A DNA stretch of 64,000 nucleotides. Origin: a virus. Each line of letters begins with the position of its first letter. Position 1 is the stretch's first letter. The translations under genes and the position numbers were made by a program. The stretch is from positions 19,409 to 83,408 of the IMG/VR virus record IMGVR_UViG_3300020183_004379. One strand, given 5' to 3'. Positions 2,647-50,755 of the stretch are shown here, piece after piece. A model generated the notes under the pieces. That model was not told where the DNA came from and did not search any database. It worked only from the letters and a program-made list of their open reading frames with translations.

Positions 2647-2876
2647 GTGTACTTCAACCTGTATATGATTTCATCGCATTCGTTAAGTTCACCGTAAATG
2701 GCGCATTTCCATCCATAGGTTTCTAGACTAGGCATTATCCTAAAACTAGGCGTCTCAATCGCATGCTCCATGACCCATCTTCCTTGATCACTGTTTTGCC
2801 AATTAATGATAGGTTGGGCGGCATAAAGTTCTGGATCTTCAACATCGCCCATATAGAATTCTTTGAACACAATCAT
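2643..2876 (-). CDS. phage hypothetical protein
   Basis: Packed ORF; TATAAT at 2883-2888 immediately upstream. Confidence 0.7.
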   Translation of the reverse strand: MIVFKEFYMGDVEDPELYAAQPIINWQNSDQGRWVMEHAIETPSFRIMPSLETYGWKCAIYGELNECDEIIYRLKYT

Positions 2877-2883
2877 AACTGTA

Positions 2884-8452: not shown

Positions 8453-8475
8453 GCAGGCTCCTTGTGTGAGTATGT

Positions 8476-8504
8476 ATTATAAAACAGAGCGGGTTTATGG
8501 TCAA
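8476..8504 (-). promoter_or_regulatory. sigma70-type promoter nested in terminator hairpin
   Basis: TTGACC-17 bp-TATAAT on minus strand. Confidence 0.75.
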
Positions 8505-8516
8505 ACCCACTCTGTT
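8483..8516 (-). terminator. intrinsic terminator after MoxR gene
   Basis: AACAGAGTGGGTTT-GACCAT-AAACCCGCTCTGTT followed by TT. Confidence 0.6.
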
Positions 8517-8520
8517 CATT

Positions 8521-9642: not shown

Positions 9643-9674
9643 CTTAAACTCCTAAAAATGTGATTTGCAGGACT

Positions 9675-9703
9675 AGTATATTGCAGATGTGAATTTGTGT
9701 CAA
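9675..9703 (-). promoter_or_regulatory. sigma70-type early promoter
   Basis: TTGACA-17 bp-TATACT. Confidence 0.8.
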
Positions 9704-9725
9704 CAAAGTTTTGTTGCTGTAGTTT

Positions 9726-10552: not shown

Positions 10553-10712
10553 GTCGCTGTTGATGCCTGTATTCGCGTTTGAGCCAATATTTATATCTGT
10601 GCCAATATTCTTTCAAAGAGTAAGGTAGTTCGTGAAACTCTTCGTGCTCACGACAGTTTTCTAGCCAGATGTTACGCAGCCAGTTTCTAAAATATTCTTT
10701 ATTTTTAGTCAC
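10491..10712 (-). CDS. small phage hypothetical protein
   Basis: GTGA overlap with upstream stop. Confidence 0.55.
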   Translation of the reverse strand: MTKNKEYFRNWLRNIWLENCREHEEFHELPYSLKEYWHRYKYWLKREYRHQQRHGKAYKTKSIVSAQLGHPRT

Positions 10713-11206
10713 ACCATGTGCCTTATGAGTAGGTCAATAGCTTTCTTTTGATCTTTAGTTTCTTCTGCAGTCAGTTCGTGCTGCACAAGTTTTTCGCTGT
10801 GTCTGTACACGCTTTCTTCGCCGTGTTCTGGCAGTTGTTCAGTAAGACCAATTAGCATGCGATAACTTTCCCATGCATGCCTAACACCTTCGTTTTGCAG
10901 CTCGGCCACGGTAGGAAAAAGATCCATCCAAACATACTCACGCGGAACCTTCATCACACCAATGCCGTTGGCACGAGGCTCAAGTATTTTTCCATTGTGA
11001 AACAATTCTAGAGCCACTGTTTCGCATGTGTGTTTGTCTAAACCATACAAATAGGTAGGTTCAGCCAGGTAACTGCCAACCACAGTTTTTACATGATCAT
11101 CTGTTAGCATGTGTGTTCTAGCGATAATGCAAAGAACATCTTCTTGTTGGACAATGCCCTTCACAAGGTCGCGCACACATCGGCCAAAACTGAATCCAAT
11201 TTTCAT
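10709..11206 (-). CDS. phage hypothetical protein
   Basis: AGGAG SD; promoter TTGACA-18-TATACT at 11230-11259. Confidence 0.75.
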   Translation of the reverse strand: MKIGFSFGRCVRDLVKGIVQQEDVLCIIARTHMLTDDHVKTVVGSYLAEPTYLYGLDKHTCETVALELFHNGKILEPRANGIGVMKVPREYVWMDLFPTVAELQNEGVRHAWESYRMLIGLTEQLPEHGEESVYRHSEKLVQHELTAEETKDQKKAIDLLIRHMV

Positions 11207-11260
11207 GACATCTCCTAGAATTTACCTGTAGTATAAAACAGTAGTGGCGTTTTTGTCAAC

Positions 11261-11539
11261 CTAGGCCACAAGCCAAGCATCGTTACGAGAAAATGGTAAA
11301 AAGATGTCTGGCACAAACACTCTTATTACCTCGAGGCCCTGAAACCATTCTACTACAAAGTGGTCGCCTGGTACTAGCCATTCTACTATTAGTTCAGGCG
11401 GAGCAGTAGGGTCTTGATTCAAAACTTTTTGCACTAGGTCTGGGTCAAACAATTTGGTTTGATCTTGATGTACGGTATACCATCCGGTTGTTGGGTTGGT
11501 CAACACAGCCACCCTGTTGTTTTTAACAAATTTATTCAT
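11261..11539 (-). CDS. phage hypothetical protein
   Basis: Packed ORF. Confidence 0.6.
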   Translation of the reverse strand: MNKFVKNNRVAVLTNPTTGWYTVHQDQTKLFDPDLVQKVLNQDPTAPPELIVEWLVPGDHFVVEWFQGLEVIRVFVPDIFLPFSRNDAWLVA

Positions 11540-11882
11540 CGCCGAGGTTATCTAAATATTGTTTGAGATTACTAGCATGCAACTCCAGCATGATAGCATC
11601 CTGTTCACCCATTAGTTCAATGTGTTTTCTATCACGAACAAAATACGGACTTGCTAATAATCTGTCCAATTGAAGCAATTGAAGATTGGTAATGCTGTCC
11701 AGTTGAAATTTATAAAATTTTATTTGATTTTGCAACAGCAGACGATGCGCTGCCAGAGTAAGTCTAAGACTATTTGGGTTTAGAACATTACGCCAAATTT
11801 GGTCCGAAGGCATTTTGCCATTGGCAAACAATTGTTGTTCCCATTGTCTTTGCCTTCCAGGTTTATGGATAGATTTGATCAC
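11532..11882 (-). CDS. phage hypothetical protein
   Basis: Packed ORF. Confidence 0.6.
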   Translation of the reverse strand: MIKSIHKPGRQRQWEQQLFANGKMPSDQIWRNVLNPNSLRLTLAAHRLLLQNQIKFYKFQLDSITNLQLLQLDRLLASPYFVRDRKHIELMGEQDAIMLELHASNLKQYLDNLGDE

Positions 11883-12150
11883 CTTGCTTGAGCAGTACCA
11901 CCGAAAACTTATCAGTCTTGAAAAGGCTGTTTAATTTTTTTGCGAGATTGATGGCATGTCCGGGATTACTGAAACTGACTTTTTTATACTTTGGCCCTGG
12001 ATAGGCTATAAGAATATTATGATTCTTAAGATTGATTGGTTTGCTGTCGTAGAATACCGCCCAGATGCCTTCACTGTTTAGCACTTGGTCGCTTTTGAAT
12101 GTGGTCTTGTTCACATGCTCCAACAACACAACCGGTTTAGGTCTACTCAT
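11863..12150 (-). CDS. phage hypothetical protein (late)
   Basis: AGGA SD; TAAATA at 12170-12175. Confidence 0.75.
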   Translation of the reverse strand: MSRPKPVVLLEHVNKTTFKSDQVLNSEGIWAVFYDSKPINLKNHNILIAYPGPKYKKVSFSNPGHAINLAKKLNSLFKTDKFSVVLLKQGDQIYP

Positions 12151-12196
12151 TTTAATTTCCTAGTAATATTATTTATCACAGAAATCTGGGCATATA

Positions 12197-12415
12197 TTAG
12201 AACTTGCCCCCATCTAGTTGTACTTCAATTGTCTGGTTAGAATTATTTTGCAATTGAAGATGAAGCCTGGCTATTTCAGCCAGCATGGTGGTTATGTCAG
12301 CATGTAGATTATTTGCCTCCGCTGCGGTCAGACGCAGTTCAGGGGTACGCAATTGATTCAATGCACGAATTCTGTCGGAAAAATTCACAATATGCATGGT
12401 AGGTTTATAGTCCAT
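12197..12415 (-). CDS. small hypothetical protein (start probably MDYKP)
   Basis: C-terminal part of ORF 12197..12475. Confidence 0.55.
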   Translation of the reverse strand: MDYKPTMHIVNFSDRIRALNQLRTPELRLTAAEANNLHADITTMLAEIARLHLQLQNNSNQTIEVQLDGGKF

Positions 12416-12875
12416 AACACTTCCTTGCAGCCTGCAATTGTTCGTCGGCGGTGCGCCACGGTCCTTGAAAATCATATCTTTGCAAAGTTATTAATTTAGG
12501 ATTGTATGCCTTGGTCCAGTTATGATTCAACTTCACAAGGTAATAACCGGCACAGTAAAAACTTTTGCTTTTATTGTTTTTGGTGTAAATTGGTAACCGT
12601 TTACTCACATCATATAATGCATTGTAAGGTTTGCCTACAGAAGGAAATCCATTTACTTCAGCAGCAGGTTTCTCTTTCTTTTTAGCAGTGGGTTTCACAA
12701 ATTCCACATTGTGTTTGTTGGCCAACATCTTGATTGTGGGATACTTTTCTCTGCTGGCCGAGTCTACCCATACAATGCCATCGTTGGTGGTTTGGATAGT
12801 GGCCACTTTTTCACCATCCTTTTCCACAATCCAAAATTTATTTTTTACCACAGGGGTTGCTTTGAGTTCGGTCAT
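12405..12875 (-). CDS. phage hypothetical protein (start MTELK)
   Basis: AAGG SD upstream; packed. Confidence 0.7.
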   Translation of the reverse strand: MTELKATPVVKNKFWIVEKDGEKVATIQTTNDGIVWVDSASREKYPTIKMLANKHNVEFVKPTAKKKEKPAAEVNGFPSVGKPYNALYDVSKRLPIYTKNNKSKSFYCAGYYLVKLNHNWTKAYNPKLITLQRYDFQGPWRTADEQLQAARKCYGL

Positions 12876-12882
12876 GCTGGTT

Positions 12883-13083
12883 TTACCTTGCTTTCTGTTT
12901 GTCATTTTCTGGTTCAAATTCAATGGTAAAATTAAAACTCAGTTTTCCATCTTCTACCTTGAGAGCAAATGTTTCTTGATCATTGAAATGATTAATCATT
13001 TCATACATCTGTGTTATTTGGCCACGAGTGAGCTGTATGGTGGTAGGCTCATAGCCAAACTTTTCTTTTTTGAATTCAGTCAT
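12883..13083 (-). CDS. small hypothetical protein
   Basis: GGAG SD. Confidence 0.6.
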   Translation of the reverse strand: MTEFKKEKFGYEPTTIQLTRGQITQMYEMINHFNDQETFALKVEDGKLSFNFTIEFEPENDKQKAR

Positions 13084-13084
13084 G

Positions 13085-13621
13085 TCAATCTCCCTTATCT
13101 TCTTTGCATACCCAGCCTAGCTTGTATAGGTCATCGGCAATTTCTTCTGTGACTTCGCCTTCACCCACATAAGTTTTAGTGGGGTCATTACCGTGACCGT
13201 TGCCATTTCCGTCAGGACCCATGCCCGAACAATACCAGTCTATATAGTCCCCTTGCTCACGCATGTCTGCGATAATGCCGCCAGCATAGCGCCAGGAGCA
13301 GGACCAATATTCGTCTCGTAGTATGGGCATGACTTCGCGCTTTTGCCACTCTGTGTTGCACATGGCTGCGTAGAGATTCTGCGCATACGCATCGCTTTCT
13401 CGTACCTTGGTCAAGATCCAGTCAGTGGTCAGGAGATCATACTCAAGGTTGTTTTCTCGGCTGGCGGGATCGTCAAACTTGTGTTTGTGATCTTCGAGTA
13501 TGCGAGCAAACATGTTTATATAGTCTTCGTTGGGAGTTTCACCTTTTTCTTCCATGCGTTTCACATAGCCTTCTCGTTGAAAACTGTGTCGATCAGGACT
13601 TGAGGCCGGTTTAGTCATCAT
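13085..13621 (-). CDS. phage hypothetical protein (YAQNLYAAMCN...SWRYAGG)
   Basis: Start trimmed to MMTKP. Confidence 0.7.
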   Translation of the reverse strand: MMTKPASSPDRHSFQREGYVKRMEEKGETPNEDYINMFARILEDHKHKFDDPASRENNLEYDLLTTDWILTKVRESDAYAQNLYAAMCNTEWQKREVMPILRDEYWSCSWRYAGGIIADMREQGDYIDWYCSGMGPDGNGNGHGNDPTKTYVGEGEVTEEIADDLYKLGWVCKEDKGD

Positions 13622-14237
13622 TTTTCTTTTTCTTTTTCTTTTTCTTGCTTTTATCGCCATCCTCGACCCAATATCCATCACCATCGGGGTATTGGCTGTC
13701 TAGTGGACCGACACCGGTCCAGTCATTTAGCATTTCCGCTTGATCTATGGCATCTCGTATGATGCGCTCTATCAGCTGATTCAGCGTGATGTCCTGTTGA
13801 TGTGCTACCTTCATCAGCTCGAACAAAACTGTTTCATCCAAGTCCAGGGGCACTTCTACTCGGGTGTCATAGTCCTCACCTGCGCGGATGGCCAGAGCCT
13901 TCTGGATAAAGTCGTCGTCGGTTTCTAGGTCCACATAGTTAACATCATCCCAGGCCTGTTTGGGATCGACCTTGCGATCGAGAGCTTCATCGTCGTGCGC
14001 TGCCTTGTAATCGGGATTGATCATGCGATAGGCACGCTGATTTTTGAAATCACAGGCTTCAACAGTGTAGACCACCTGTGTGTTGGAATCAAACACGATG
14101 TTAAAACTACAGCCATCGTGGTCTCCGTTCCAAGAACTGAGGCCGAAGGCGTTATCTCCAAAACACTGCCACAGGTAATTGTCGCCTTCAGTGATGCGAT
14201 ATTCTACCAGTTCCATCCATTCTTTGAGAGTGATCAT
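13611..14237 (-). CDS. phage hypothetical protein with C-terminal ribbon-helix-helix-like segment
   Basis: Start MITLK; ...LMKVAHQQDITLNQLIERII. Confidence 0.65.
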   Translation of the reverse strand: MITLKEWMELVEYRITEGDNYLWQCFGDNAFGLSSWNGDHDGCSFNIVFDSNTQVVYTVEACDFKNQRAYRMINPDYKAAHDDEALDRKVDPKQAWDDVNYVDLETDDDFIQKALAIRAGEDYDTRVEVPLDLDETVLFELMKVAHQQDITLNQLIERIIRDAIDQAEMLNDWTGVGPLDSQYPDGDGYWVEDGDKSKKKKKKKKNDD

Positions 14238-14458
14238 TGCAAGTACCTTCCTTTGGAGTCTAGTGCGTTGACGAGTTTTTCTGCTTGGTCGGGCTCCAGA
14301 TCGTCCCAATCCACCGGTTGGCTCATGGCCCGGATCTCCTCGGCTGTTTTACCTTCAAACATCTGCACGATTTCTTCCATGGCTTGATCCAACTCTTCCT
14401 GAGTACCTTCAAAGTTTTCAAAAAACGCAGGATCAAAAACGATTTTAGGTGTGCTCAT
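14234..14458 (-). CDS. small acidic hypothetical protein
   Basis: ATGA-coupled. Confidence 0.6.
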   Translation of the reverse strand: MSTPKIVFDPAFFENFEGTQEELDQAMEEIVQMFEGKTAEEIRAMSQPVDWDDLEPDQAEKLVNALDSKGRYLQ

Positions 14459-14682
14459 TCTTCAACTCCCATTTGTGCCCTAATGCGATTATATGCCATT
14501 GCTATTCCTGCTTGAAATCCTTTATCAAAATCATCTTCGTTACCTAACCCATCCCCTTGTTTGATAATTGACATACATTCCCTAACAATCAACTCGGCGA
14601 ACTTTTCTGAGTTAAACCAAGAAGGGCCATACTGTCGAGGTTCCCAACATTGGGATTCAAGTTCTTTAATTCGTTCGTTCAT
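14455..14682 (-). CDS. small hypothetical protein (EKFAELIVxEC family)
   Basis: Paralogous to neighbour 14679..14882. Confidence 0.65.
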   Translation of the reverse strand: MNERIKELESQCWEPRQYGPSWFNSEKFAELIVRECMSIIKQGDGLGNEDDFDKGFQAGIAMAYNRIRAQMGVEE

Positions 14683-14882
14683 TCTTCAACTCCGAAATGT
14701 TGTTTGATCTTGTCGCTGGGGTAGTTCTCACCATTGTCTTCGTTATTCACCCAATCATCGGCGATCCTAGAACACTCCCCGACGATCAACTCGGCAAACT
14801 TTTCTTGTATTTGCGGATTGATATCAGGATAGTGTGATCCACCTGCTTGTAACTGTAATTTTCTCAACAACTCTTTGTTCAT
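14679..14882 (-). CDS. small hypothetical protein (EKFAELIVxEC family)
   Basis: Shares EKFAELIV.EC and terminal GVEE with 14455..14682. Confidence 0.65.
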   Translation of the reverse strand: MNKELLRKLQLQAGGSHYPDINPQIQEKFAELIVGECSRIADDWVNNEDNGENYPSDKIKQHFGVEE

Positions 14883-15874
14883 GTTTTCTCCGGATAGCCA
14901 GCATTCAAAAAGTCTACATACCGCTGTGCCTGGTCACCAATTTTTACAAGATTGTGTTTACCGCAAAACTTCATGAACTTAACTCCAATCTGTGGAATAG
15001 TTTTTGTCACAGAATTGATAGCAATGGTTTCTGCCATCCAACTCTTCACATGATTAGGTTGCGCAGTAAGATCAATCAAGGTGCGATTGCGTTCGTAATC
15101 ATCCAACACGCGATGTTCAATTTCATTATGGTCAACCCAGCGTTGCAACATGAGATTGTTCCAATTGAAACCTTTACGGTCCATGTCGGCAAATGCTTCT
15201 TGCAGGCCTACTTTGTTCTTGCTGCCTTTTACTCGCACACCTGGATAGGCCGAAAACACATTGTCACTCACATCACCACGCATGCACTTCTCAAACAGCA
15301 GCCATTTTGGATCAGGAATAACCTTGGGTTCCTTGGTCTTCTTGTCTATCACACGCCGGCCTTTGTAGTCAAAGATGCCTTCCGGTGTGTGAAGTTCGTC
15401 CGACACTCCATTGTACTGTGTGACATTGTCTGCTAACAGTTGATAGTAGTCTGTGTCGCTGCTCACAATCACATGATTGTCTGCGGGATGACTTTGTATC
15501 CAGCCTGCCACAAGATCATCTGCTTCAAGGTTCTCGTGACGCAAGACTGTGCAGTTGGACTTTTCGTAGAAGAATGTTTTGAGATCGTCAAAGGCCTGCC
15601 AAAATGCACGATCTTCTTCTAGTTCGGCATCGGTGAGTGCCGCACGAGCCACAGCACGATTTTTCTTGTAGGGAGTGTAGTAGTCCTTGCGCCAGCTTCT
15701 ACCCTCAAGGCAGATAACCACATGATTGGCCTTTTGATCACGCCAGGCCTTGTAGATACTGGATAAAGTCACATGAATAGCAAAGCCTACTTTTTCTTCC
15801 AGTGTGCTGGCTCTATGGGCTGCATGGCGAGCCCGAAAGAATGTGTTAGCAGTATCGACAATCAAGTAGTTCAT
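14879..15874 (-). CDS. rnh: T4-type RNase H / 5'-3' exonuclease (FEN family)
   Basis: LIVD..N, SWRK, YKKNR, EADD, VSSDTDYYQL, RGDVSDN. Confidence 0.9.
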   Translation of the reverse strand: MNYLIVDTANTFFRARHAAHRASTLEEKVGFAIHVTLSSIYKAWRDQKANHVVICLEGRSWRKDYYTPYKKNRAVARAALTDAELEEDRAFWQAFDDLKTFFYEKSNCTVLRHENLEADDLVAGWIQSHPADNHVIVSSDTDYYQLLADNVTQYNGVSDELHTPEGIFDYKGRRVIDKKTKEPKVIPDPKWLLFEKCMRGDVSDNVFSAYPGVRVKGSKNKVGLQEAFADMDRKGFNWNNLMLQRWVDHNEIEHRVLDDYERNRTLIDLTAQPNHVKSWMAETIAINSVTKTIPQIGVKFMKFCGKHNLVKIGDQAQRYVDFLNAGYPEKT

Positions 15875-15880
15875 GGAGTA

Positions 15881-15909
15881 ATAATAGCACTTTATTTATT
15901 CCATGTCAA
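15881..15909 (-). promoter_or_regulatory. composite sigma70 + late promoter for rnh
   Basis: TTGACA-17-TATTAT with TAAATA (15893-15898) in the spacer. Confidence 0.7.
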
Positions 15910-15924
15910 CCACTAAATTTGGAG

Positions 15925-16338
15925 TCAGCTCACTTCGGTCCTGCCGTTGCCCAAATCTTTGCGTTGCAGTGTGAGTCTATCTTCTCTGGGCTGATTGGCT
16001 TCCCACTGTTCGAAATTTTCCATGACCACATTTCGGCAAATGTCCTGGAACCAGCGGTCCACAATTTGGGCATCATCGTTGCCTGTGTAACCTGCTCTTA
16101 CAAGTTTAGCAACAAAATATTCGTTCCAGTCCAGTTCAAATGCTCCGTTGCCGGGATTGGTGTCGTCCAATTCAACACCAATCACAGCCACATAAGGCTC
16201 TTTCTTTCTTGTGGCCACAGCCTTGGGATCTCTGGCTTTGGCCGTTACCTTGAGTGGAATAGTTTTGGCAACAACTTTCTTGGTATCTTTTTTGGGTGCT
16301 GCTTTTTTTGCAGCACCTGTTTTCTTAGCAGTGGCCAT
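15925..16338 (-). CDS. phage hypothetical protein with Lys/Ala-rich N-terminus
   Basis: Start MATAKK; FELDWN...VDRWF. Confidence 0.7.
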   Translation of the reverse strand: MATAKKTGAAKKAAPKKDTKKVVAKTIPLKVTAKARDPKAVATRKKEPYVAVIGVELDDTNPGNGAFELDWNEYFVAKLVRAGYTGNDDAQIVDRWFQDICRNVVMENFEQWEANQPREDRLTLQRKDLGNGRTEVS

Positions 16339-16340
16339 GT

Positions 16341-17237
16341 TTATTTGCCCCAGCCATTGCCCCACAAGTCTACATGCAGACGTGGGCTGTAATTATAGCC
16401 TAGATTCAATGCAAATTCGGCAATGTCTTTTTTATGAACATCGTATAACTCGGTAGTGCCGCCAACTGGCATAATATAAACTTGTCCCATAAACCCAGCA
16501 TTACGGTACTCATTTACAGCTCGCTCAACTTCTAACATTGCGTCATGTGTGCCTACAACAAATTTTAAGTATGTCATTCCAAACTGCTGATATTCAGTGA
16601 TAATTTCTGGTTTGATAGCATCCTGCCATTTTTCACCACTACCACTTAGCTTAGGACTAACAGAAAATTGCATCTCTCTCCAACGACCAATGTATTGTTG
16701 GTGATCGTCTTCGGTGGTACCACGCCAAACAGTATGCCATTGCTCGATATATGCTTTGAACTCTTCGTCAAGATGTTGTGTTCCATTTGTTTCAAAAGTA
16801 ATATAATCTAGATCGATCATTCTAGGATGTTCTAATAGGTCTGGGTATGCACGTTGCCAACCCAGCAGTGGCTCACCGCCTGTGATCACCAGATGTACAG
16901 GATTGCCTGAATACTGATGCCAACGATTGTTTGGTGTTAGTTCCAACATTCTCTCAACAACGGCGTCGGTTTCTAGCATGGGACTGAGATCTTTGAATCG
17001 TGGATCCCAGCTGGCATAGCTATCGCAACCTGTATGCACAAGGGGCAAGCTGTTAAATGTTTTATACTTGCTGGGGTCTACGGCATCACGCTCAATACTA
17101 ATTTCTCCATGCGGCATGCCAAATCCACCGCATGTAAAGTTGCAACCAAACGTGCGTAAGAACACGCTAGGCACACCAACATAACGACCTTCGCCCTGCA
17201 GGCTATAAAATATTTCACTGATTTTGATTTTGCTCAT
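16341..17237 (-). CDS. queE: 7-carboxy-7-deazaguanine synthase (radical SAM)
   Basis: EIFYSLQGEG, FLRTFGCNFTC...GCDS, ITGGEP, FETNGT, SPK, SPRLH. Confidence 0.93.
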   Translation of the reverse strand: MSKIKISEIFYSLQGEGRYVGVPSVFLRTFGCNFTCGGFGMPHGEISIERDAVDPSKYKTFNSLPLVHTGCDSYASWDPRFKDLSPMLETDAVVERMLELTPNNRWHQYSGNPVHLVITGGEPLLGWQRAYPDLLEHPRMIDLDYITFETNGTQHLDEEFKAYIEQWHTVWRGTTEDDHQQYIGRWREMQFSVSPKLSGSGEKWQDAIKPEIITEYQQFGMTYLKFVVGTHDAMLEVERAVNEYRNAGFMGQVYIMPVGGTTELYDVHKKDIAEFALNLGYNYSPRLHVDLWGNGWGK

Positions 17238-18100
17238 TTTATTTCCTCAAGTATCTTATTATACAATGTTTCAAAGTTGGCGTCAAGCCATTGCTCTACT
17301 GACAGTGGATTCCAATCTGGTAACACTGATAATAGTTTATTTAGATTGGCACGACTCTCCCATTGATATTTTTCAATCATGTGATCTGGCATGGGAGTCA
17401 CATACACCTGCACAGATTCTATACCAAACTGCTTTTGCACCATTCGTGCTATGTCTTCGAAAGTCAGTTGTTGCCCGGTACCAATGTTATACACGCCACT
17501 CACACCAAGATCTTTGAGACGCAGCATGGCATGGATGCAATCGTCCACGCTGATAAAATCTCTTGAGCCTAGTTTGCCATTGTGATGCCAAACCATGAGT
17601 TTGCGTGTTGTGGCAGCACTTTCGATGTATCTACGCACAGGACTAGGTTGATTTTTATGCCCTTCATTGCGACCATACACATTGAAGAATCGCATGCCCT
17701 GCACAGGCACTTTGAACCGTTGCTCGGCACACCACATGTCAATGGTAATTTTGCTCACACCATAAGGATGCTGTGGTTGGAATGGTCCCCACTCAGGACT
17801 GTTGCTCCATGGACCATACACACTGGCACTTGATGCATAGGTAATGCCGCATCCATGCTGTTCAGCAAAACGAACCCAGGCCTGTGTGTCTTGGATATTT
17901 TTCCTTACCAGCGCATCCCAGTCAAACACATTGGTTTCACTGATAGCACCCATATGAAATATCCATTCAATGGGTTCGGTAGCAGTCCAGGTCTTGCCGC
18001 GGTCTGCCCAATCAAGCGAATGAACTGTGTGTCCTTGATCTATTAGATGCTTCTTTAGCTCGCTACCAATAAAGCCTCTATCGCCTGTAACAATTATCAT
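17234..18100 (-). CDS. ADP-L-glycero-D-manno-heptose 6-epimerase-like SDR
   Basis: MIIVTG..GFIGS, IFHMGAISET, YASSASVYG, YGVSK, RFFNVYG.NEGHK resemble HldD/RfaD. Confidence 0.75.
   Translation of the reverse strand: MIIVTGDRGFIGSELKKHLIDQGHTVHSLDWADRGKTWTATEPIEWIFHMGAISETNVFDWDALVRKNIQDTQAWVRFAEQHGCGITYASSASVYGPWSNSPEWGPFQPQHPYGVSKITIDMWCAEQRFKVPVQGMRFFNVYGRNEGHKNQPSPVRRYIESAATTRKLMVWHHNGKLGSRDFISVDDCIHAMLRLKDLGVSGVYNIGTGQQLTFEDIARMVQKQFGIESVQVYVTPMPDHMIEKYQWESRANLNKLLSVLPDWNPLSVEQWLDANFETLYNKILEEIK
17258..17286 (-). promoter_or_regulatory. sigma70-type promoter for queE inside the upstream gene's 3' end
   Basis: TTGACG-17-TATAAT. Confidence 0.65.
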
Positions 18101-18540
18101 CAGTCTATGTCTCCGCCTTCGCTGTCACCAACTAATGCTGCGTCTGGCGTTGGTGTCTTTCTATAGTTGCCCTTGCCCGGAATAGTATTGCGTACACCGC
18201 CCACCGGGTCCGGTACATCGCCTTTTCTACGGGGTATAAGATGGATATGAGGCCATGGCACAGTTTGTCCCGCAGCTTCGCCATAATTAAATCCAATGTT
18301 GAAACCATCCCATTCTCCTGAATCTACCATGCGTTTGCCATAATCAAATGCATCTTCAAAGGCTTCTTTGAGTATGCTGGTACTATTATACTGCGGAACA
18401 AACAGCAAGTGTCCTGGCGTACAGGGGTATTTGTCGTTGAATACTGCTATGTGGAAGTCTTTTCTTACAGTGTCATCCCATGGAGCATTGCTGTCTTCAA
18501 TATGATCTGGCCCATTAAATATGCGTTTGTATATGGTCAT
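18100..18540 (-). CDS. HIT-family nucleotide hydrolase
   Basis: DKYP..PGHLLFVP, GFNIG.N.G.AAGQTV..PHIHLIPR (first triad His replaced by Trp). Confidence 0.9.
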   Translation of the reverse strand: MTIYKRIFNGPDHIEDSNAPWDDTVRKDFHIAVFNDKYPCTPGHLLFVPQYNSTSILKEAFEDAFDYGKRMVDSGEWDGFNIGFNYGEAAGQTVPWPHIHLIPRRKGDVPDPVGGVRNTIPGKGNYRKTPTPDAALVGDSEGGDID

Positions 18541-18542
18541 GA

Positions 18543-19088
18543 TTATCCTTCGTAGATGGCACTGTTGCCAGCGTGTTCAAACACTTCAACACTAATTAAT
18601 TTAACTCTTTGGTGATCGTCGCCTAGCAAGTTTTGGTATTTGTTGGTTGGATCAGCAGCTAGCCATTGTGCAACATATTTGTAAACAAATTCTGAAAATG
18701 CCTCGCATCCCACAGCAGGAACAATTCGCAAATCAATTACACCTTGATTATGGTATGGGTTTTTCTGAACTTCATCTGGGTTGCCATCAACCTCGGCCAT
18801 GCGACTCCACCCTGCCATTTGTTTGAAACGATCCAGTAGCGGATCATCTTCAGCGATAACGGTGGTATGATCAAACTGTGTGTCCAGCCAAGTCTTGATT
18901 TCTTTGAGTCCGCCAAAGTCTTGAACCCAATTGCGTTCGTCCAGTTGTTCGGCTTCAAACACAAAACGGAAACCTAAACTGTAGCCATGCATGAGACTGC
19001 AATGGCTGTGAGTGGCCTGCCACTGTCTGAAACAGCATGAATAGCCGCGATCGTTGCCGTATGTTTTTGTTGAAAAATGTCTTGCCAT
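18543..19088 (-). CDS. queD: 6-carboxy-5,6,7,8-tetrahydropterin synthase
   Basis: SHCSLMHGY, WVQDFG.LK, FDH, VEVFE. Confidence 0.88.
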   Translation of the reverse strand: MARHFSTKTYGNDRGYSCCFRQWQATHSHCSLMHGYSLGFRFVFEAEQLDERNWVQDFGGLKEIKTWLDTQFDHTTVIAEDDPLLDRFKQMAGWSRMAEVDGNPDEVQKNPYHNQGVIDLRIVPAVGCEAFSEFVYKYVAQWLAADPTNKYQNLLGDDHQRVKLISVEVFEHAGNSAIYEG

Positions 19089-19162
19089 GGTACTTCTCCT
19101 ATGTTAAAGTTTAGCATAGGCGGCAGAGTTTGTAAAGCGGGATGACGCCGAAAGACCGCTGG
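19089..19162 (-). ncRNA. candidate cis-regulatory pseudoknot (riboswitch-like) in queD leader
   Basis: P1 AGCGG/CCGCU; loop CGGCG can pair with downstream UGCCG(CC); CCUAUG/CAUAGG hairpin covers the AGGAG SD. Confidence 0.55.
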
Positions 19163-19164
19163 TT

Positions 19165-19683
19165 TTATTTCTCGCTTGGACCTTTGCGGTCATCTGGAAT
19201 ACTGTCAAACGCTCCTTCTTTGGCCAATTTGCTTTTGATTTCTTCAGCACTGGCCACTCGTTGGCGTAATTCACTGGAACTGAAACTGTGGTCACGGCCA
19301 TTAAAGAACAAGTCAATGCCACGCTTGTGACAAATTTCTCGCCCTGTGAACTCTTTGCCTTCGTATTCTACTCCTAGAATACGCACATCAATTGGCAGTA
19401 TCAGCAGCAGATCCTCTAGATCCTTTTCAGTATTGTACACCCAAACCTCATCAACATACTTACAGGCAACAAGTTGCAGTTGCCGTTCCACAATACTCTG
19501 CACAGGTTTGTTCTTGCTAGGACGATCCAGTGTTGGATCATTCTGCAAAGCGCAGATAAGATATTCACAATGTTCTTTTGCTTCTTTCAACATAGCCACA
19601 TGCCCTGCATGTAGTAAATCAAATGTGCTTGCGGTAAATCCTATTTTTTTGCCATTAATCATTTTGCCCACCAATTCTCCCAA
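19165..19683 (-). CDS. cytidylyl/adenylyltransferase (TagD/HldC-like)
   Basis: FDLLHAGH (HxGH), ERxxxL.ACKYVDEV, RDHSFSSSELR. Confidence 0.88.
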   Translation of the reverse strand: MGELVGKMINGKKIGFTASTFDLLHAGHVAMLKEAKEHCEYLICALQNDPTLDRPSKNKPVQSIVERQLQLVACKYVDEVWVYNTEKDLEDLLLILPIDVRILGVEYEGKEFTGREICHKRGIDLFFNGRDHSFSSSELRQRVASAEEIKSKLAKEGAFDSIPDDRKGPSEK

Positions 19684-20228
19684 GGGAATTCAATCCAGCA
19701 AGGGTTTTCATGTTTGTTAATAATTAGTCCTGCAAAGTCCACGCCTTTGAATTCGCTTGAATCATTGTCTACAACGGTGGCAAATTGAACATTATGATGC
19801 CAGATATCGTTCCAGATTTCGTCGCGGGGCAAGCAACCAGACTCCCAATCGTCCTTGATCCATTGCAATGTGCGCCCAGTATCATTGATATCATCTACAA
19901 TTAAAATGTTTTTGCGAAGTTTGGGGTCAGTTACAGGTGTGTCTTGGGGTCTAGGAACAATGTCTGTAGGTACATAACCAAAGGCAGCCTCGGCCATCCA
20001 CAAGTTGCTTTCTGGTCCCATATCGTTGTCACGAAAGCTAACGTCAAGAGTATGCAGCGGTACATCCAGATATTGACTTAGCAACACAGCTGGCACAAGA
20101 CCGCCACGAGATATGCCAACAATGTAGTCAGGTTGGAAATGAAATTTGTGCATCTGTCTTATGATACTGTGGATGTAACCATTTAACTGTTCATAGCTGA
20201 TGGTAACAATTTTGTTAGGAGTTGTCAT
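19659..20228 (-). CDS. type I phosphoribosyltransferase (xanthine/guanine PRT-like)
   Basis: IVGISRGGLVPA, ILIVDDINDTGRT (PRPP loop), WIEFPWE. Confidence 0.88.
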   Translation of the reverse strand: MTTPNKIVTISYEQLNGYIHSIIRQMHKFHFQPDYIVGISRGGLVPAVLLSQYLDVPLHTLDVSFRDNDMGPESNLWMAEAAFGYVPTDIVPRPQDTPVTDPKLRKNILIVDDINDTGRTLQWIKDDWESGCLPRDEIWNDIWHHNVQFATVVDNDSSEFKGVDFAGLIINKHENPCWIEFPWENWWAK

Positions 20229-20301
20229 ATTCTGGTACCTTTATGTCGTGATTGATAATTGCCTCGTAAAATTTACACATGAGCTGGCATAGGTATGGAT
20301 C

Positions 20302-20787
20302 TTAAACGGCTTTAGTGCCCCCACGCCGGGCGAGATAACTTTCATTGTGTTCCCAATCTTTATTTGGATCTTTACCTACCAAAAATCCCCATTCTCTTTT
20401 GTGTGGACCTGGCATGAACAAGGTCCAAGCAGTTACGCCATCCTTAAGTTCAATACGATGAAAGCTACCAGCCCGGCAACGGCGGAAATGGCCAGGACCA
20501 CGCCAATGCCGTGTTTCACCGATCTTGGTACCTGAGTCATCAAACTCTGGTACCCATTCGTAATAACCTCCCGCAAGTATAAAAGTACAATACGGCCATG
20601 GGTGATCATGTACATCGTCGAGATCTCCTTTAAGGAATTTATGTAAGAAAATATTGAATGGAAAACGATTGCGTTCTTTCAAGAATAGATAATATCTTTC
20701 AAGATAGGGTTCGTCGCTAACTCTATCCATGATGATTCTCTTCCGTTTGAGTTTTTCTAGCAATTTAAGCAACATCGGATTGACCAA
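20302..20787 (-). CDS. cupin-fold metal-binding protein
   Basis: HDHPW...GGYYE...FHRIEL. Confidence 0.7.
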   Translation of the reverse strand: MVNPMLLKLLEKLKRKRIIMDRVSDEPYLERYYLFLKERNRFPFNIFLHKFLKGDLDDVHDHPWPYCTFILAGGYYEWVPEFDDSGTKIGETRHWRGPGHFRRCRAGSFHRIELKDGVTAWTLFMPGPHKREWGFLVGKDPNKDWEHNESYLARRGGTKAV

Positions 20788-21024
20788 TCAAGTGGGTTTG
20801 GGAATGTATTTCTGATCTATCCCGGGTACTTCTATGCTCACACACCAAGAATTCATGTGCAGGTGTTCTTGCAATGGCGTGCGTGAATTCATAGTGGTAT
20901 TGATGTGTTGGTAACATGTTTTTCTATCTCGAAAATAGCCTTGGTATTGTATCAGCTCACATTTTTCAGCAGGTATGCTACACACGACTATTACAGGTAT
21001 AAACAAAGTTACTAGTTCAATCAT
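20788..21024 (-). CDS. small exported Cys-containing protein
   Basis: Hydrophobic N-terminus; four Cys. Confidence 0.55.
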   Translation of the reverse strand: MIELVTLFIPVIVVCSIPAEKCELIQYQGYFRDRKTCYQHINTTMNSRTPLQEHLHMNSWCVSIEVPGIDQKYIPKPT

Positions 21025-21445
21025 CGAATACTTCTTCTTCTAGATAACGTCTCAGTTCTTTGTCTGTAGGCTCAACTGAATAGTTCTGTTTGAAGAAAAT
21101 CTCATATGAATCGGAACCATATTTGCCGATACCATACAGCATTGTAGCATCATTGCCATTCCAGGTCAAGTAGTCCTTACTCATTCTTAGCAATCTTGTG
21201 TACCGTACATTGACCATGCCCAGAGGCTGTATAATACTTTTGACAAAATCTTCGTCAGCATTAATCAACACTTTAGGCCAAGGAAACCAATACAAGAATT
21301 CGGGTAATACTTTTTTTACAGTTACGCGACTGGTTTGATTGAGCATGATAACCCCAATCATGTGTTCCCATGAGTTGCTGACCTGCTGTTGTACCATGAG
21401 ATCTGGTCTCATGGGCTGCAGACATTCAAGAAATTTTGACATCAA
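21017..21445 (-). CDS. MBD4-like HhH DNA glycosylase
   Basis: VQQ..W...VIMLNQTS, PLG, LYGIGKYGSDSYEIF, PTDKEL match the MBD4 glycosylase-domain pattern. Confidence 0.8.
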   Translation of the reverse strand: MMSKFLECLQPMRPDLMVQQQVSNSWEHMIGVIMLNQTSRVTVKKVLPEFLYWFPWPKVLINADEDFVKSIIQPLGMVNVRYTRLLRMSKDYLTWNGNDATMLYGIGKYGSDSYEIFFKQNYSVEPTDKELRRYLEEEVFDD

Positions 21446-21842
21446 CTGTGCCCACGCTAGAGCCTTTGTAGTTTGATTTTAACAGATCGTCCACTCTTTC
21501 TGCAATGGTTTCCCCTGCCGAATTAGGGGGGTCAAAAGCATAACTAGTTGTGCTTTTTGCCATAGCACTGTTTTGAGCATGAGTAGAATCTTTTGTCTCA
21601 AGTTTTTCCAACCTCAGTTGCAGGTTTTTTACATCTTCAAACAGTCTGCGCATGGGTCCTTGCCACAGCTGGTAGCGACGGTCGCCGTGTGCATTATGAT
21701 TACGGGCCAGCGAGGCAATAACCATTAGGTGTTGCAGTGCCTTTTGCACACTGGGATCGTCACTGGTTAGTGCTTCATCAAACAATTCAATGAAAGATTC
21801 TAAATCAAAATCTGCAGAGTCTTTTTCTCTTTGAGCATTCAT
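21426..21842 (-). CDS. phage hypothetical protein
   Basis: Start MNAQR, ATGA-coupled. Confidence 0.6.
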   Translation of the reverse strand: MNAQREKDSADFDLESFIELFDEALTSDDPSVQKALQHLMVIASLARNHNAHGDRRYQLWQGPMRRLFEDVKNLQLRLEKLETKDSTHAQNSAMAKSTTSYAFDPPNSAGETIAERVDDLLKSNYKGSSVGTVDVKIS

Positions 21843-22054
21843 TTTTGATTCTTCAAATTCCAATAGGTATTAAGTGTTTCAAGTTTGTCGCAATGTTCAC
21901 TCATCTTGCTCAATTCAGAATCAATGGCACTCATGATATCGGTATGGTCGTGAATAGCCATTGGGTTTTCCAACATCACTTCAATGTTGGTTTTGTGTTT
22001 TTCGATGCCTGCTTCAAGATGCGCCTGTGTTGCCTTAATAATATCTTTTTTCAT
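21839..22054 (-). CDS. small helical hypothetical protein
   Basis: GGAG SD; coupled. Confidence 0.65.
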   Translation of the reverse strand: MKKDIIKATQAHLEAGIEKHKTNIEVMLENPMAIHDHTDIMSAIDSELSKMSEHCDKLETLNTYWNLKNQK

Positions 22055-22290
22055 AAATCGTCTCCTTCTAGTTGTCTAAGCCAAGCGTCAACTTGGTTTT
22101 CTGCTTCTTCCAGAGTTATGGCATACACTGTGGCAACCATGCGTCCGCTTTTGTTGATCTTTAGATCAAATGGTACTACCCCTGCGCTTAAAATAATATC
22201 AGCATCGTCCAGCTGCCTTACAATGCGGAACTTTTGCATGGCCTTGGCTCTACTGATTAAATTTTCTGTTATTTCCTTAGCTGTTTTCAT
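22051..22290 (-). CDS. small hypothetical protein
   Basis: AGGAG SD. Confidence 0.6.
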   Translation of the reverse strand: MKTAKEITENLISRAKAMQKFRIVRQLDDADIILSAGVVPFDLKINKSGRMVATVYAITLEEAENQVDAWLRQLEGDDL

Positions 22291-22298
22291 CAATGCTC

Positions 22299-22517
22299 CT
22301 AGTTGATGCTTGGTGGCGTTATCTTTATAACTTTGCCACGCAAGTCACTAATGTTATCTACCATGTTGTTGTAATCAGTTTCATTTAACGCACTTCTGTA
22401 TAAAGAAAGGCCTGCTGTGCTCAGAACTGCTGCGATTTCAATTACTTCGTAACCTTCGCCACACAGGTTATCTATCTGTTGCCATACAATCTCATGAAGT
22501 TTATTCAAATTTTTCAT
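22299..22517 (-). CDS. small hypothetical protein
   Basis: ATGA-coupled to folE. Confidence 0.6.
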   Translation of the reverse strand: MKNLNKLHEIVWQQIDNLCGEGYEVIEIAAVLSTAGLSLYRSALNETDYNNMVDNISDLRGKVIKITPPSIN

Positions 22518-23281
22518 CGTGGAGCAAACTCCTGTTGTAGTTTGATATTGTCCATGAACTCTTTCTTAACTCCTGGATCACTTTTGAATACGCCAGTGAG
22601 CACAGTTGTTTGAGTCAATGAACTATGTGCCATGATGCCACGGTTTTCACAACATCCGTGTGTGGCTTGAATGTATACACCTACATCTCGACTTCCAGTG
22701 GCTTTCATGATCTCTCTAGCAATGTCATTGCATAACTCTTCCTGTAGTGTACCACGGCGAGCACACCATTGAGCAAGGCGAGTGTACTTAGACAGTCCAA
22801 TGAGTTTTTCGGCAGCAATGATTCCAATATATGCCACTCCATTAACTGGTTGATGATGATGACTGCACATACTGCGAAGCTCGCTGCGGACAACTAGCAT
22901 GCCGTCATAACGGTCTTGTGTATCGTTTGGAAATGCTGTGGCGCTGGGTGATGGATCATATCTGCCTGCCATAATTTCATGAAAGTACATCTTGGCCAAT
23001 CGCCGAGCTGTACCTTGACTGTTAGGATCTGTTTCTCTATCTATTAACAGTGTATCTAGTACTTGTTCAAACGCAGTTGTGGCTTCATCTATCAACTGTG
23101 TTTTCATGTAATCATCAACATATTCGCTGATATTGTCTCCGGCCCAAAATCTTTTACCATCTCGCCGCATCTTGAATGCAAGATGTTTATGTGCTTGGCC
23201 TATTTCATATCCGCCATTGCCGGGCATAGCATCTAATCCTGTTTCTGAATTATTACTAATGTGTGCTTTGTTGTAAACCAT
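22514..23281 (-). CDS. folE: GTP cyclohydrolase I
   Basis: T.RRLAKMY, SMCSHH, IGLSKYTR, LQEE, HGC...RG. Confidence 0.93.
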   Translation of the reverse strand: MVYNKAHISNNSETGLDAMPGNGGYEIGQAHKHLAFKMRRDGKRFWAGDNISEYVDDYMKTQLIDEATTAFEQVLDTLLIDRETDPNSQGTARRLAKMYFHEIMAGRYDPSPSATAFPNDTQDRYDGMLVVRSELRSMCSHHHQPVNGVAYIGIIAAEKLIGLSKYTRLAQWCARRGTLQEELCNDIAREIMKATGSRDVGVYIQATHGCCENRGIMAHSSLTQTTVLTGVFKSDPGVKKEFMDNIKLQQEFAPR

Positions 23282-23316
23282 TTATTTCTCCGAGTTATAG
23301 CCGAGGATGGCTAGCG
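23282..23316 (-). ncRNA. candidate SD-occluding pseudoknot in folE leader
   Basis: UAGCC-AUCCUC-GGCUA hairpin; loop UCC/CUC complementary to SD GGAG a few nt downstream. Confidence 0.4.
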
Positions 23317-23320
23317 TTTT

Positions 23321-23349
23321 ATTATAGATTTATTTAGATGTTGTGTCAA
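23321..23349 (-). promoter_or_regulatory. composite sigma70 + late promoter for folE
   Basis: Perfect TTGACA-17-TATAAT with TAAATA (23331-23336) in the spacer. Confidence 0.8.
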
Positions 23350-24319
23350 CTGAATTTGATGGGTTATTATACCAGTTCCAGGCTGAACGCACAATATTGC
23401 TCAGATCTGAATGTTCAGGACTCCATCCTAGAATTGTTTTTGCCAATTGATTGCTTGCAACCAATCGATCAGGATCTCCAGGCCTTCGAGGGCCAATGGC
23501 TGTGCGAATTTCTCCAATTTCTTTAGTCACGCAATCCATCACTTGCTGGTTGCTATAACCTTGTGACGATCCAAGATTAAGTGCCAAACACGATTCCATG
23601 TCGCTTAACAGATAAGAAACTGCCAGGCTATGTGCATTGGCTAGATCAGTCACATGCACATAGTCTCGTATGCAAGTGCCATCTGGTGTATTATAATCGT
23701 TGCCATTCAGAGTAAACACAGTGTCATTTCGTATGCTCTCAAGAAGTCTTGCCACTATGTGTGTGGCGTCAGGTGCTTGTCCTAATGTGCCTGATTCATC
23801 TGCACCGCAGGCGTTGAAGAAGCGCAAACTTGCACTCTTCATTCCATACGCTCTATTGAAATCTGTAAGCATGATTTCTATCATGGCCTTGCTCTGGCCA
23901 TAAGGACTTAGAGGATTGTAAGGATCTTGTTCCTGGATGTTGTCTTTGTCAGGCGCTCCATACACTGCTGCACTGCTGGAAAAAACAACCACAGGCGTAG
24001 TGTCAAGATATCTAAGTGAATTGAGTAAAGCAGCAGTCTTTGCCACATTGTTTGTGTAGTACTCGCCAGGATTGGCCACGCTTGGACCTACCAAACTGGT
24101 ACCTGCCAGATGAACTACCGCTTGGGGTGCATGCTGTACCAGTGCATCAACGCAGGTTGGGCTATGATAATCAGCTTCAATGAACTGATCCATGTGTTTC
24201 AGAGTGTGTTCTCTGCGCACACGATCAAGACCAATTACTTCATAACCATCTTCTTTTAATTTCTTACACACATGGCTACCAATGTAACCAGTTGCTCCTG
24301 TAACAAATACTTTGATCAT
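23330..24319 (-). CDS. galE: UDP-glucose 4-epimerase-like
   Basis: TGATGYIGSH, FSSSAAVYG, YGQSK, LRFFNACGA, DGTCIRDYVHVTDLA.AH, RRPGDP. Confidence 0.9.
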   Translation of the reverse strand: MIKVFVTGATGYIGSHVCKKLKEDGYEVIGLDRVRREHTLKHMDQFIEADYHSPTCVDALVQHAPQAVVHLAGTSLVGPSVANPGEYYTNNVAKTAALLNSLRYLDTTPVVVFSSSAAVYGAPDKDNIQEQDPYNPLSPYGQSKAMIEIMLTDFNRAYGMKSASLRFFNACGADESGTLGQAPDATHIVARLLESIRNDTVFTLNGNDYNTPDGTCIRDYVHVTDLANAHSLAVSYLLSDMESCLALNLGSSQGYSNQQVMDCVTKEIGEIRTAIGPRRPGDPDRLVASNQLAKTILGWSPEHSDLSNIVRSAWNWYNNPSNSVDTTSK

Positions 24320-31872: not shown

Positions 31873-31894
31873 TGATTCTCCTTTGAGTTTATTG

Positions 31895-31923
31895 ATTATA
31901 ACATGATCTATTTAGATCGTCAA
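31895..31923 (-). promoter_or_regulatory. composite sigma70 + late promoter with palindrome
   Basis: TTGACG-17-TATAAT; spacer GATCTAAATAGATC contains TAAATA inside an inverted repeat. Confidence 0.75.
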
Positions 31924-31928
31924 CGGTA

Positions 31929-36299: not shown

Positions 36300-36364
36300 G
36301 ATATCTCCTAATTGAAAATCATATTATACACTTTACTTACACACACTGCAACACCTATGAACAA

Positions 36365-50661: not shown

Positions 50662-50696
50662 GCGCATATTTTACATGTTAATATAACCATGTGTCA

Positions 50697-50727
50697 AGTG
50701 GAAATCCCTCGTAAGGCGATTTCCACT
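50697..50727 (-). terminator. stem-loop between holin-like gene and dnaJ promoter
   Basis: agtggaaatc...gatttccact 10-bp inverted repeat. Confidence 0.5.
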
Positions 50728-50755
50728 GACTGTTTATGCAATTACTTATAGGCTT

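Follow-up and report, generated by a model that had tools for sequence, protein, structure and literature searches.

A conserved H-type pseudoknot in the leaders of phage queD genes: a candidate translational ON riboswitch

Introduction

The known preQ1 riboswitch classes are bacterial OFF switches. In preQ1-I (RF00522), as PMC11625349 describes it, the specificity C follows a U in type I and an A in types II and III, the ligand is touched by a conserved U of loop L1 atop the 5′ strand of helix P1 (U6; a UU motif in types I and III), and helix P2 or the ligand pocket occludes the Shine–Dalgarno (SD) sequence, so that ligand binding represses expression. Four to five conserved adenines stand directly before the P2 3′ strand and are joined to P1 by a variable linker in the account given by PMC10622847. 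Here we analyze an mRNA leader upstream of a queD-like gene in a stretch of viral DNA of 64,000 nucleotides (nt), hereafter the window (IMG/VR record IMGVR_UViG_3300020183_004379, positions 19,409–83,408). The leader resembles preQ1-I in being an H-type pseudoknot with a P1 of 5 base pairs (bp) whose loop holds the P2 5′ strand, in the invariant C that immediately precedes the P1 3′ strand (the position of the specificity base) and itself usually follows U or A, in its A-rich L3, which probably runs along P1, and in preceding a gene of the 7-deazaguanine pathway, on which it would likewise act at translation initiation.

The adenine (add) riboswitch is a translational ON riboswitch that works through sequestor and anti-sequestor pairings and whose ligand and substrate-induction logic are known. 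As in the leader studied here, one strand is common to its ligand-stabilized aptamer helix and to the helix that sequesters the ribosome-binding site (RBS), whereas its aptamer is a three-way junction and the present one a pseudoknot. In T4 gene 32, a pseudoknot operator is bound by protein. A protein-bound pseudoknot operator is described for E. coli rpsO as well, with S15 as the protein. In both of these systems, as here, a small 5′ leader pseudoknot is set against an alternative hairpin to control translation, and T4 supplies a phage precedent; unlike the present leader, they are repressors bound by their own gene product and do not have the preQ1-I-like conserved loop nucleotides.

By the account in PMC9004378, riboswitches have rarely been reported in phages. 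Our literature searches, with supplementary motif lists and gene tables outside their scope, returned no account of a queD-leader riboswitch or of a phage deazaguanine riboswitch. The main text of PMC5737381 mentions none of queD, PTPS and folE, and the review PMC11625349 does not use the words ‘phage’, ‘queD’ or ‘on-switch’.

Results

A pseudoknot in the queD leader is maintained by compensatory changes

The leader occupies a 76-nt spacer (19164–19089, minus strand) between the TAA stop codon (19167–19165) of a nucleotidyltransferase-like open reading frame (ORF) and the ATG (19088–19086) of a PTPS/QueD-family ORF. The element is real: the leader that had been quoted in a sequence-only reading of the window, together with its 5-bp P1, the loop ending in C, the A-rich linker and the hairpin that sequesters the SD, was located piece by piece on the minus strand. 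That reading had also remarked that the spacer survives in an otherwise gap-free operon, and among the six genes at 16341–20228 it is indeed alone in exceeding 2 nt; past that run, the next spacers measure 73 nt (20229–20301) and 48 nt (23282–23329). P1 is formed by AGCGG (19156–19160) and CCGCU (19136–19140) and closes a loop of 15 nt. Within this loop lie L1 (UCUUUC, 19150–19155), the P2 5′ strand (GGCG, 19146–19149) and L2 (UCAUC, 19141–19145), the last nucleotide of which, C19141, is directly 5′ of the P1 3′ strand. L3 (UUACAAACUCUGC, 19123–19135) follows, its A-rich half adjoining P1 and its conserved UCUGC adjoining P2, and is succeeded by the P2 3′ strand (CGCC, 19119–19122), which pairs with GGCG.

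Homologous leaders were collected in two independent ways. The protein-found sample consists of 80 viral contigs with relatives of the QueD-like protein (52–94% identity; the best 80 of 294 confirmed), and 72 of them have the motif, in 43 distinct versions, immediately before the gene. R1, a covariance model with 12 leaders as its seed, detected a single copy in the window and one copy apiece in 76 of the 80 loci. In L004–L007 the motif is placed 630–750 nt upstream, before the first T-fold paralogue, and in four of the 80 loci (L050, L053, L064 and L071) R1 found no motif. The pattern-found sample was obtained with a DNA pattern limited to L1, L2, L3 and the invariant GG/CC and contributed 95 new distinct sequences (A4).

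In the first set (46 distinct sequences), P1 is 100% and P2 89.9% paired, and compensatory changes affect three of the five P1 pairs and four of the five P2 pairs (7/10 overall); the other two P1 pairs, both G-C, never vary. The covariation score of this set is 0.541, compared with 0.149 for shuffled alignments, none of 500 shuffles reaches the observed value, and sliding the 3′ partner by 1–3 columns reduces the score to 0.082 or less. The second set (95 distinct sequences) has 98.5% of P1, 87.1% of P2 and 92.9% of all cells paired, with compensatory changes at 3/5 P1 pairs and 5/5 P2 pairs (8/10 overall) and a covariation score of 0.497 versus 0.154 shuffled (0/500 reaching it; slides at most 0.084). 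A second model, R2, built only from the 95 pattern-found sequences with the window left out, retrieves 19114–19161 at 65.3 bits (E = 3.3e-13), the runner-up in the 64-kilobase (kb) window scoring 11.8 bits.

Thus, both helices that had been predicted from the single sequence are kept through compensatory changes in homologous leaders of both sets. Two registers had been offered for P2, and only one of them stands: GGCG/CGCC is the conserved pairing, whereas CGGCG/UGCCG, which amounts to a slide of −3, is not conserved and pairs 36.8% and 41.7% of cells in the two sets. A cross-partner control of P2 (mean of 4.6 bp with own partners, 3.9 bp with foreign ones) did not separate the two cases, as wobble-compatible P2 strands recur across many clades, and anchored column counts were used in its place. 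Both P2 strands adjoin fixed anchors, UCAYC in L2 and the UCUGC that ends L3.

The loops are conserved as strongly as the helices, a pattern typical of binding pockets. The 44 protein-found leaders of alignment A1 (window included) are free of the DNA-pattern constraint and provide an unbiased count for the terminal C of L2. Invariant among them are the GG/CC of P1, the second nucleotide of L1 (C14), the terminal C of L2 (C27) and five positions of L3, and the U that follows C14 (T15) is nearly invariant. Each of the 44 parsed leaders has an L3 of 13 nt. In contrast to the C and U at its second and third positions, the first nucleotide of L1 is variable (U in 52, A in 45 and C in 40 of 137 unique aptamers). 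The terminal C of L2 is present in 137/137 unique aptamers, for part of which the search pattern fixed this C, and is preceded by U in 101, C in 23, A in 12 and G in one; in the window, C19141 is the candidate specificity base.

P1 pair 3 (19158/19138) covaries with L3 positions 4 (19132) and 6 (19130) across the 137 unique aptamers. When the pair is C-G, L3 position 4 is other than A in 91 of 93 aptamers and position 6 is A in all 93; when it is A-U or U-A, position 4 is A in 44 of 44 and position 6 is other than A in 39 of 44. This three-way covariation suggests a base triple or minor-groove docking, as for an L3 docked on P1, and shared ancestry could contribute to it.

Complementarity between the P2 3′ strand and the ribosome-binding site

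Downstream of the knot in the window, CCUAUG (19120–19115) and CAUAGG (19103–19098) form the SD-sequestering hairpin (19098–19120) around an 11-nt loop. The first two C of CCUAUG are the last two nucleotides of the P2 3′ strand, and CAUAGG overlaps the SD, AGGAG (19096–19100). The minimum free energy (MFE) structure of the window leader also pairs UGGCA (19087–19083), within the start codon and codon 2 (AUGGCA, 19083–19088), with UGCCG (19125–19121). The P2 3′ strand is therefore common to P2 and to the RBS-sequestering structures.

The wiring of the leaders was examined by pairing the 12 nt from the start of the P2 3′ strand with the RBS window from −18 to +9 and counting contiguous helices of at least 6 bp. 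Such a helix is present in 140 of 147 unique leaders, compared with 19.7% of shuffles; in 81 leaders it lies over the start codon and in 59 over the SD region, and in 138 of the 140 it begins 0–3 nt from the start of the P2 3′ strand. In A1, the anti-start helix is 79.1% paired, against 29–59% when slid, and the nucleotide at −1 covaries with its partner (C-G in 18, U-A in 13 and A-U in three leaders). The codon 2 variants GCA, GUA and ACU change together with P2. The SD hairpin of the window recurs in 52 of 137 unique aptamers, which we refer to as class A.

The sequence-only reading had held that the GGCG/CGCC register would break the SD hairpin. The conserved register does share nucleotides of the P2 3′ strand with the hairpin and conflicts with it, and knot formation should therefore loosen the hairpin. 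More generally, the start region has its mimic in the P2 5′ strand, and only one of the two can be paired with the P2 3′ strand at a time, which is the wiring of an ON switch; pairing of the P2 3′ strand with the SD or the start codon suggests an ON switch. In a thermodynamic model, blocking the P2 strands raises RBS accessibility from 0.42 to 0.55 in 87 leaders outside class A (a rise in 91% of them) and changes the fold energy of the window leader from −16.1 to −10.4 kcal/mol.

The motif tracks queD in uncultured phages

The link to the gene was counted over 205 regex-defined copies with at least four of five P1 pairs. A T-fold ORF with the signature CxxxHGY begins within 80 nt downstream of 195 of these copies. 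One copy (L189) precedes a CxxxHGH QueD that is followed by a second T-fold ORF, and in two (L178 and L190) a different ORF comes first, the T-fold ORF lying 0.4–0.8 kb downstream; contig ends truncate three copies, and four are pattern matches due to chance. What follows queD varies widely from one carrier to another, so that the RNA tracks queD itself and no fixed operon.

Two observations on gene content accompany this count. Tandem T-fold genes, two CxxxHGY paralogues, stand behind a single motif in L004, L005 and L007 (about 2320–3550). The genes found after queD in other carriers (L018 and L027; L014 and L056; L055 and L073) include a KdsA-like enzyme of the DAHP-synthase family, a UvdE endonuclease and an Fe/Mn superoxide dismutase, as well as a glycosyltransferase, methyltransferases and a B12-binding radical SAM enzyme.

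The pattern scan placed the motif in at least 120 uncultured viral contigs of IMG/VR. In 185,579 prokaryote species, represented by one genome each, the pattern matched 12 times. Six of these matches are true copies, all on contigs of metagenome-assembled genomes (L082, L084, L085, L088, L089 and L092), and the other six, which have neither a proper P1 nor a T-fold gene, are due to chance; no isolate genome of this collection carries the motif. Searches of 50,697 GenBank phage records by blastn with two leaders gave no matches or chance matches (E ≥ 2, inside unrelated coding genes). There was no cultured carrier among four of the 108 phage records with QueD homologues, in which R1 with filters off scored at most 8.3 bits, and in these four cultured phages queD abuts or overlaps the upstream gene.

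The leader compared with preQ1-I

Rfam 15 returned no family match at E ≤ 10 in the 1.3 kb at 18500–19800, in the 86 nt at 19085–19170 or in 10 diverse carrier loci, RF00522 included. The matches that were seen are at chance level, belong to unrelated families and all fall outside the aptamer (19114–19161); the closest, mgtC_leader at 18999–19111, extends into the SD hairpin.

The sequence-only reading had seen in the leader an architecture recalling preQ1-I and a sequence that does not match it. Both observations hold, the H-type knot being supported by compensatory changes and RF00522 being silent. Besides giving no covariance-model match, the queD leader differs from preQ1-I in several respects. 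Its L1 begins with a variable nucleotide followed by the invariant C-U, and the conserved U is absent. Its L3 has a fixed length of 13 nt, with the A-rich part next to P1 and UCUGC directly before P2. The SD lies 19–35 nt downstream of P2 (19 nt in the window) and not within it, and because the P2 3′ strand can itself pair with the RBS, the knot should expose the latter (ON, not OFF). Finally, the motif was found in uncultured phages only. On these comparisons, with four tested features of preQ1-I membership absent, we would describe the leader as similar to small pseudoknot riboswitches and would not file it under preQ1-I.

Promoter-like sites in and around the leader

A sigma-70-like promoter (TTTACA, 17 nt, TGc-TAAACT, with an extended −10; 9/12 matches, with TG) is embedded in the leader at 19108–19136 on the minus strand and shares nucleotides with the end of P1, with L3, with the P2 3′ strand and with the hairpin loop. 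In class A (n = 58), TGnTAnnnT is kept in the hairpin loop of 54 leaders, TATAAT in 35, and L3 provides a −35-like hexamer; 54 of the 58 leaders have no promoter in the 70 nt upstream. Outside class A, a TTGAC-N17-TATAAT promoter lies just upstream of the motif in 50 of 97 leaders, and the presence of upstream promoters in many relatives places the motif in the 5′ untranslated region. Judging from these arrangements, class A may produce two mRNAs, a read-through transcript under RNA control and a short one starting after the aptamer.

Elsewhere in the window, spacers contain clear promoters of the form TTGACA-N17-TATAAT, and those at 9643–9725, 11207–11260, 15875–15918, 31873–31928, 36300–36364 and 50668–50755 carry near-consensus sigma-70 promoters. 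At 8453–8520 (minus strand), a long inverted repeat with a T run overlaps TTGACC-N-TATAAT and looks like a terminator and a promoter packed together. Reading the leader as a terminator was rejected: a scan of the minus strand at 18000–20500 gave no terminator-like site, and P1 followed by UUU is too weak.

The phage QueD and its pathway

The gene behind the leader encodes a T-fold PTPS/QueD-family protein of 181 amino acids with the signature CxxxHGY (18543–19088, minus strand; PF01242, 7.6e-15; QueD-like phrog_2389, 2.1e-38). It scores under the NCBIfam QueD cut-off (30.3 vs 89.25 bits), and a sequence search of the PDB with this protein gave nothing at E ≤ 0.001. PMC10516641 gives CxxxHGH as the signature of QueD and LxxxHRHxF as that of DpdL. 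CxxxHGY was also read in the QueD of the four cultured phages, and two of these, Acinetobacter phage HD01 and Microcystis phage Me-ZS1, have annotated QueE-QueC-QueD-FolE-TGT clusters; by context, CxxxHGY is therefore the usual form in phage QueD.

In addition to the QueD-type T-fold enzyme, the window encodes FolE (22514–23281) and a QueE-like radical SAM protein (16341–17237; phrog_2076, 1e-50), a combination that belongs to the phage 7-deazaguanine DNA-modification pathway of PMC10516641. Between and beside them are a xanthine/guanine-type phosphoribosyltransferase (19659–20228), an HldE-domain-II-like nucleotidyltransferase (19165–19683), a HIT protein (18100–18540) and a sugar-nucleotide epimerase (17234–18100). 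The occurrence of FolE, QueD and QueE-like genes amid phosphoribosyltransferase, nucleotidyltransferase and epimerase genes suggests a nucleotide-level or sugar-decorated route to 7-deazaguanine. The same neighborhood (16341–23281, minus strand) also holds a cupin (20302–20787) and an HhH-GPD glycosylase-like ORF (21017–21445), with a second sugar-nucleotide epimerase/dehydratase at 23330–24319.

The source record is an 83-kb viral contig from lake water, estimated to be 23% complete, and in this part of the genome no QueC was found. PF01702 (TGT) gave no match at E ≤ 0.1 in the same incomplete record or in five large carrier genomes; DpdA3 and DpdA4 are detectable by HHpred only, according to PMC10516641. 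Each of the five carrier genomes (300–382 kb, 83–100% complete) contains exactly one PTPS-family gene, four of the five contain FolE and a QueE-like gene, and all five have only partial, short and weak matches to the QueC family. Because these QueC-family matches are partial and short, the phages themselves probably make neither preQ0 nor preQ1. The gene set resembles the QueC-free route to 7-deazaguanine DNA that PMC10516641 describes for Cellulophaga phage phiST. Radical SAM genes occur at two further places: five large radical-SAM-domain ORFs (open frames of 405–458 amino acids) lie upstream of the window on the plus strand of the record (10669–16388), and an ORF of the SPASM type is found at 57079–58089 of the window.

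Discussion

A translational ON riboswitch on phage queD is in our view the most likely mechanism, with a probability of about 0.6; the fold and its conservation, the tie to queD and the mutually exclusive pairings are shown by the data, and ligand binding, ligand identity and the direction of switching are the parts of it that we infer. The leader combines a conserved structured aptamer with mutually exclusive pairings, the generic mark of a riboswitch. The cis-acting mRNA leader encoded by the spacer forms a small, compact H-type pseudoknot in which P1 has 5 bp and P2, between the P1 loop and the tail, has 4 bp. The P2 3′ strand also takes part in the structures that bury the RBS, namely the SD hairpin CCUAUG/CAUAGG together with UGCCG/UGGCA over the start codon in the window and, in most relatives, a helix over the start codon itself. 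In the proposed mechanism, a small guanine-faced ligand (a 7-deazaguanine, a pterin or guanine itself) would stabilize the knot, which would pull the P2 3′ strand off the RBS and allow phage QueD to be translated, and the downstream HIT, epimerase and QueE-like genes would follow by coupling.

The invariant C would suggest a ligand with a 2-amino-4-oxo face, which is common to GTP, guanine, the FolE and QueD pterins, 7-carboxy-7-deazaguanine (CDG), 7-deazaguanine, preQ0 and preQ1. ON logic at the second enzyme of the pathway seems to sit better with an inducer, either free guanine or a metabolite made upstream, than with feedback by an end product, a view that we hold loosely. More tentatively, and at slightly less than even odds, the leader may represent a phage-only riboswitch class, structurally descended from or convergent with preQ1-I, that senses a guanine-faced metabolite other than preQ1 and turns ON translation of the enzyme by which GTP is committed to 7-deazaguanine hypermodification of DNA. 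CDG, 7-deazaguanine, a FolE-derived pterin, or free guanine from DNA base exchange or host DNA breakdown could serve as examples of its ligand.

Several points weigh against a translational ON riboswitch. For the pair counts, sequences were aligned with a covariance model that fits them to P2, and the alignments lean toward pairing as a result; this bias is reduced, and not removed, by the slide controls and by the fixed anchors in L2 and L3. The sequences are related, and the shuffle counts are accordingly no probabilities. The nested MFE of the leader is ordinary (−17 kcal/mol, z = −0.40, with 65 of 200 shuffles equal or better), a score that is uninformative because nested folding cannot represent a pseudoknot. 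In class A, to which the window belongs, the hairpin stem is almost invariant and hence without covariation support, P2 and the SD hairpin overlap by only 2 nt, and blocking P2 in the model changes accessibility from 0.53 to 0.57 in 55 leaders, with a rise in 56%. For the window itself the modelled gain is small (SD, 0.37 to 0.51; AUG, 0.39 to 0.48), and the predicted direction of switching in this leader is the least secure step. The embedded promoter-like site could yield transcripts that are free of the aptamer, and all 24 runs listed for the locus are lake or freshwater DNA metagenomes, with no RNA run. Moreover, an ON switch on a biosynthetic gene would be unusual and offers no obvious ligand logic.

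The alternative that survives best, one we nevertheless judge unlikely, is a translational operator bound by a protein of phage or host (for example the QueD-type enzyme itself, another pathway protein or ribosomal protein S1), without small-molecule sensing. The fold and its strict tie to one gene family would fit autoregulation equally well, the motif is essentially confined to phages, and protein-bound pseudoknot operators exist in phages and bacteria, as in T4 gene 32 and in rpsO with S15. However, the invariant unpaired nucleotides, the C before the P1 3′ strand and the A-rich L3, sit at the places of ligand contact in preQ1-I, and the aptamer, of only ~45 nt, has an architecture typical of metabolite-binding H-type knots. 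T-fold enzymes, moreover, are not known to bind RNA.

We regard as improbable, and more so than a protein operator, a structural leader that acts independently of any ligand, through fixed or kinetically timed translation, as a thermometer or through mRNA stability, with class A serving mainly as an internal promoter. The modest change in modelled accessibility in class A would be in keeping with this idea, as would the 54 of 58 class A leaders that keep the extended −10 with its −35-like hexamer, the 54 of 58 without an upstream promoter, and the plain sigma-70 promoters of other spacers in the window. A promoter, though, can account neither for the compensatory changes in the two helices nor for the presence of the motif in classes that have their own upstream promoter, and conservation of the loops to this degree would be needless for a simple stability or standby element.

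It is very improbable that the leader is an ordinary, divergent member of preQ1-I that binds preQ1 or preQ0 and represses queD in the manner of the bacterial OFF switches. The topology, the terminal C before the P1 3′ strand, the A-rich L3 and the queuosine-pathway gene downstream are all those of preQ1-I, but RF00522 is silent at E ≤ 10 on the 86 nt of the window and on the 10 loci, L1 lacks the conserved U, the adenines are not next to P2 and the SD lies outside it. The complementarity of the P2 3′ strand to the RBS further implies inverted logic, and even the five near-complete carriers have only partial, short matches to the QueC family. Chance complementarity in an intergenic spacer, with which a nested MFE no better than that of shuffles would agree, is already refuted by the hundreds of copies, the compensatory changes and the 65-bit match of a model built without the window.

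If the leader is a translational ON riboswitch, it would widen the range of ligands and of logic associated with one of the smallest riboswitch folds. An aptamer of ~45 nt would be easy to test and potentially useful as a compact ON-type engineering part, and the family offers at least 137 distinct natural variants for structure–function work. A phage-only class that senses a guanine-faced metabolite would be, to our knowledge, a first ligand-sensing RNA over a phage DNA-modification pathway. DNA hypermodification is an anti-restriction strategy, and a widespread relative of the preQ1 classes, restricted to phages and inverted in its logic before the QueD step, would imply that phages time or gate this modification by direct sensing of a metabolite.

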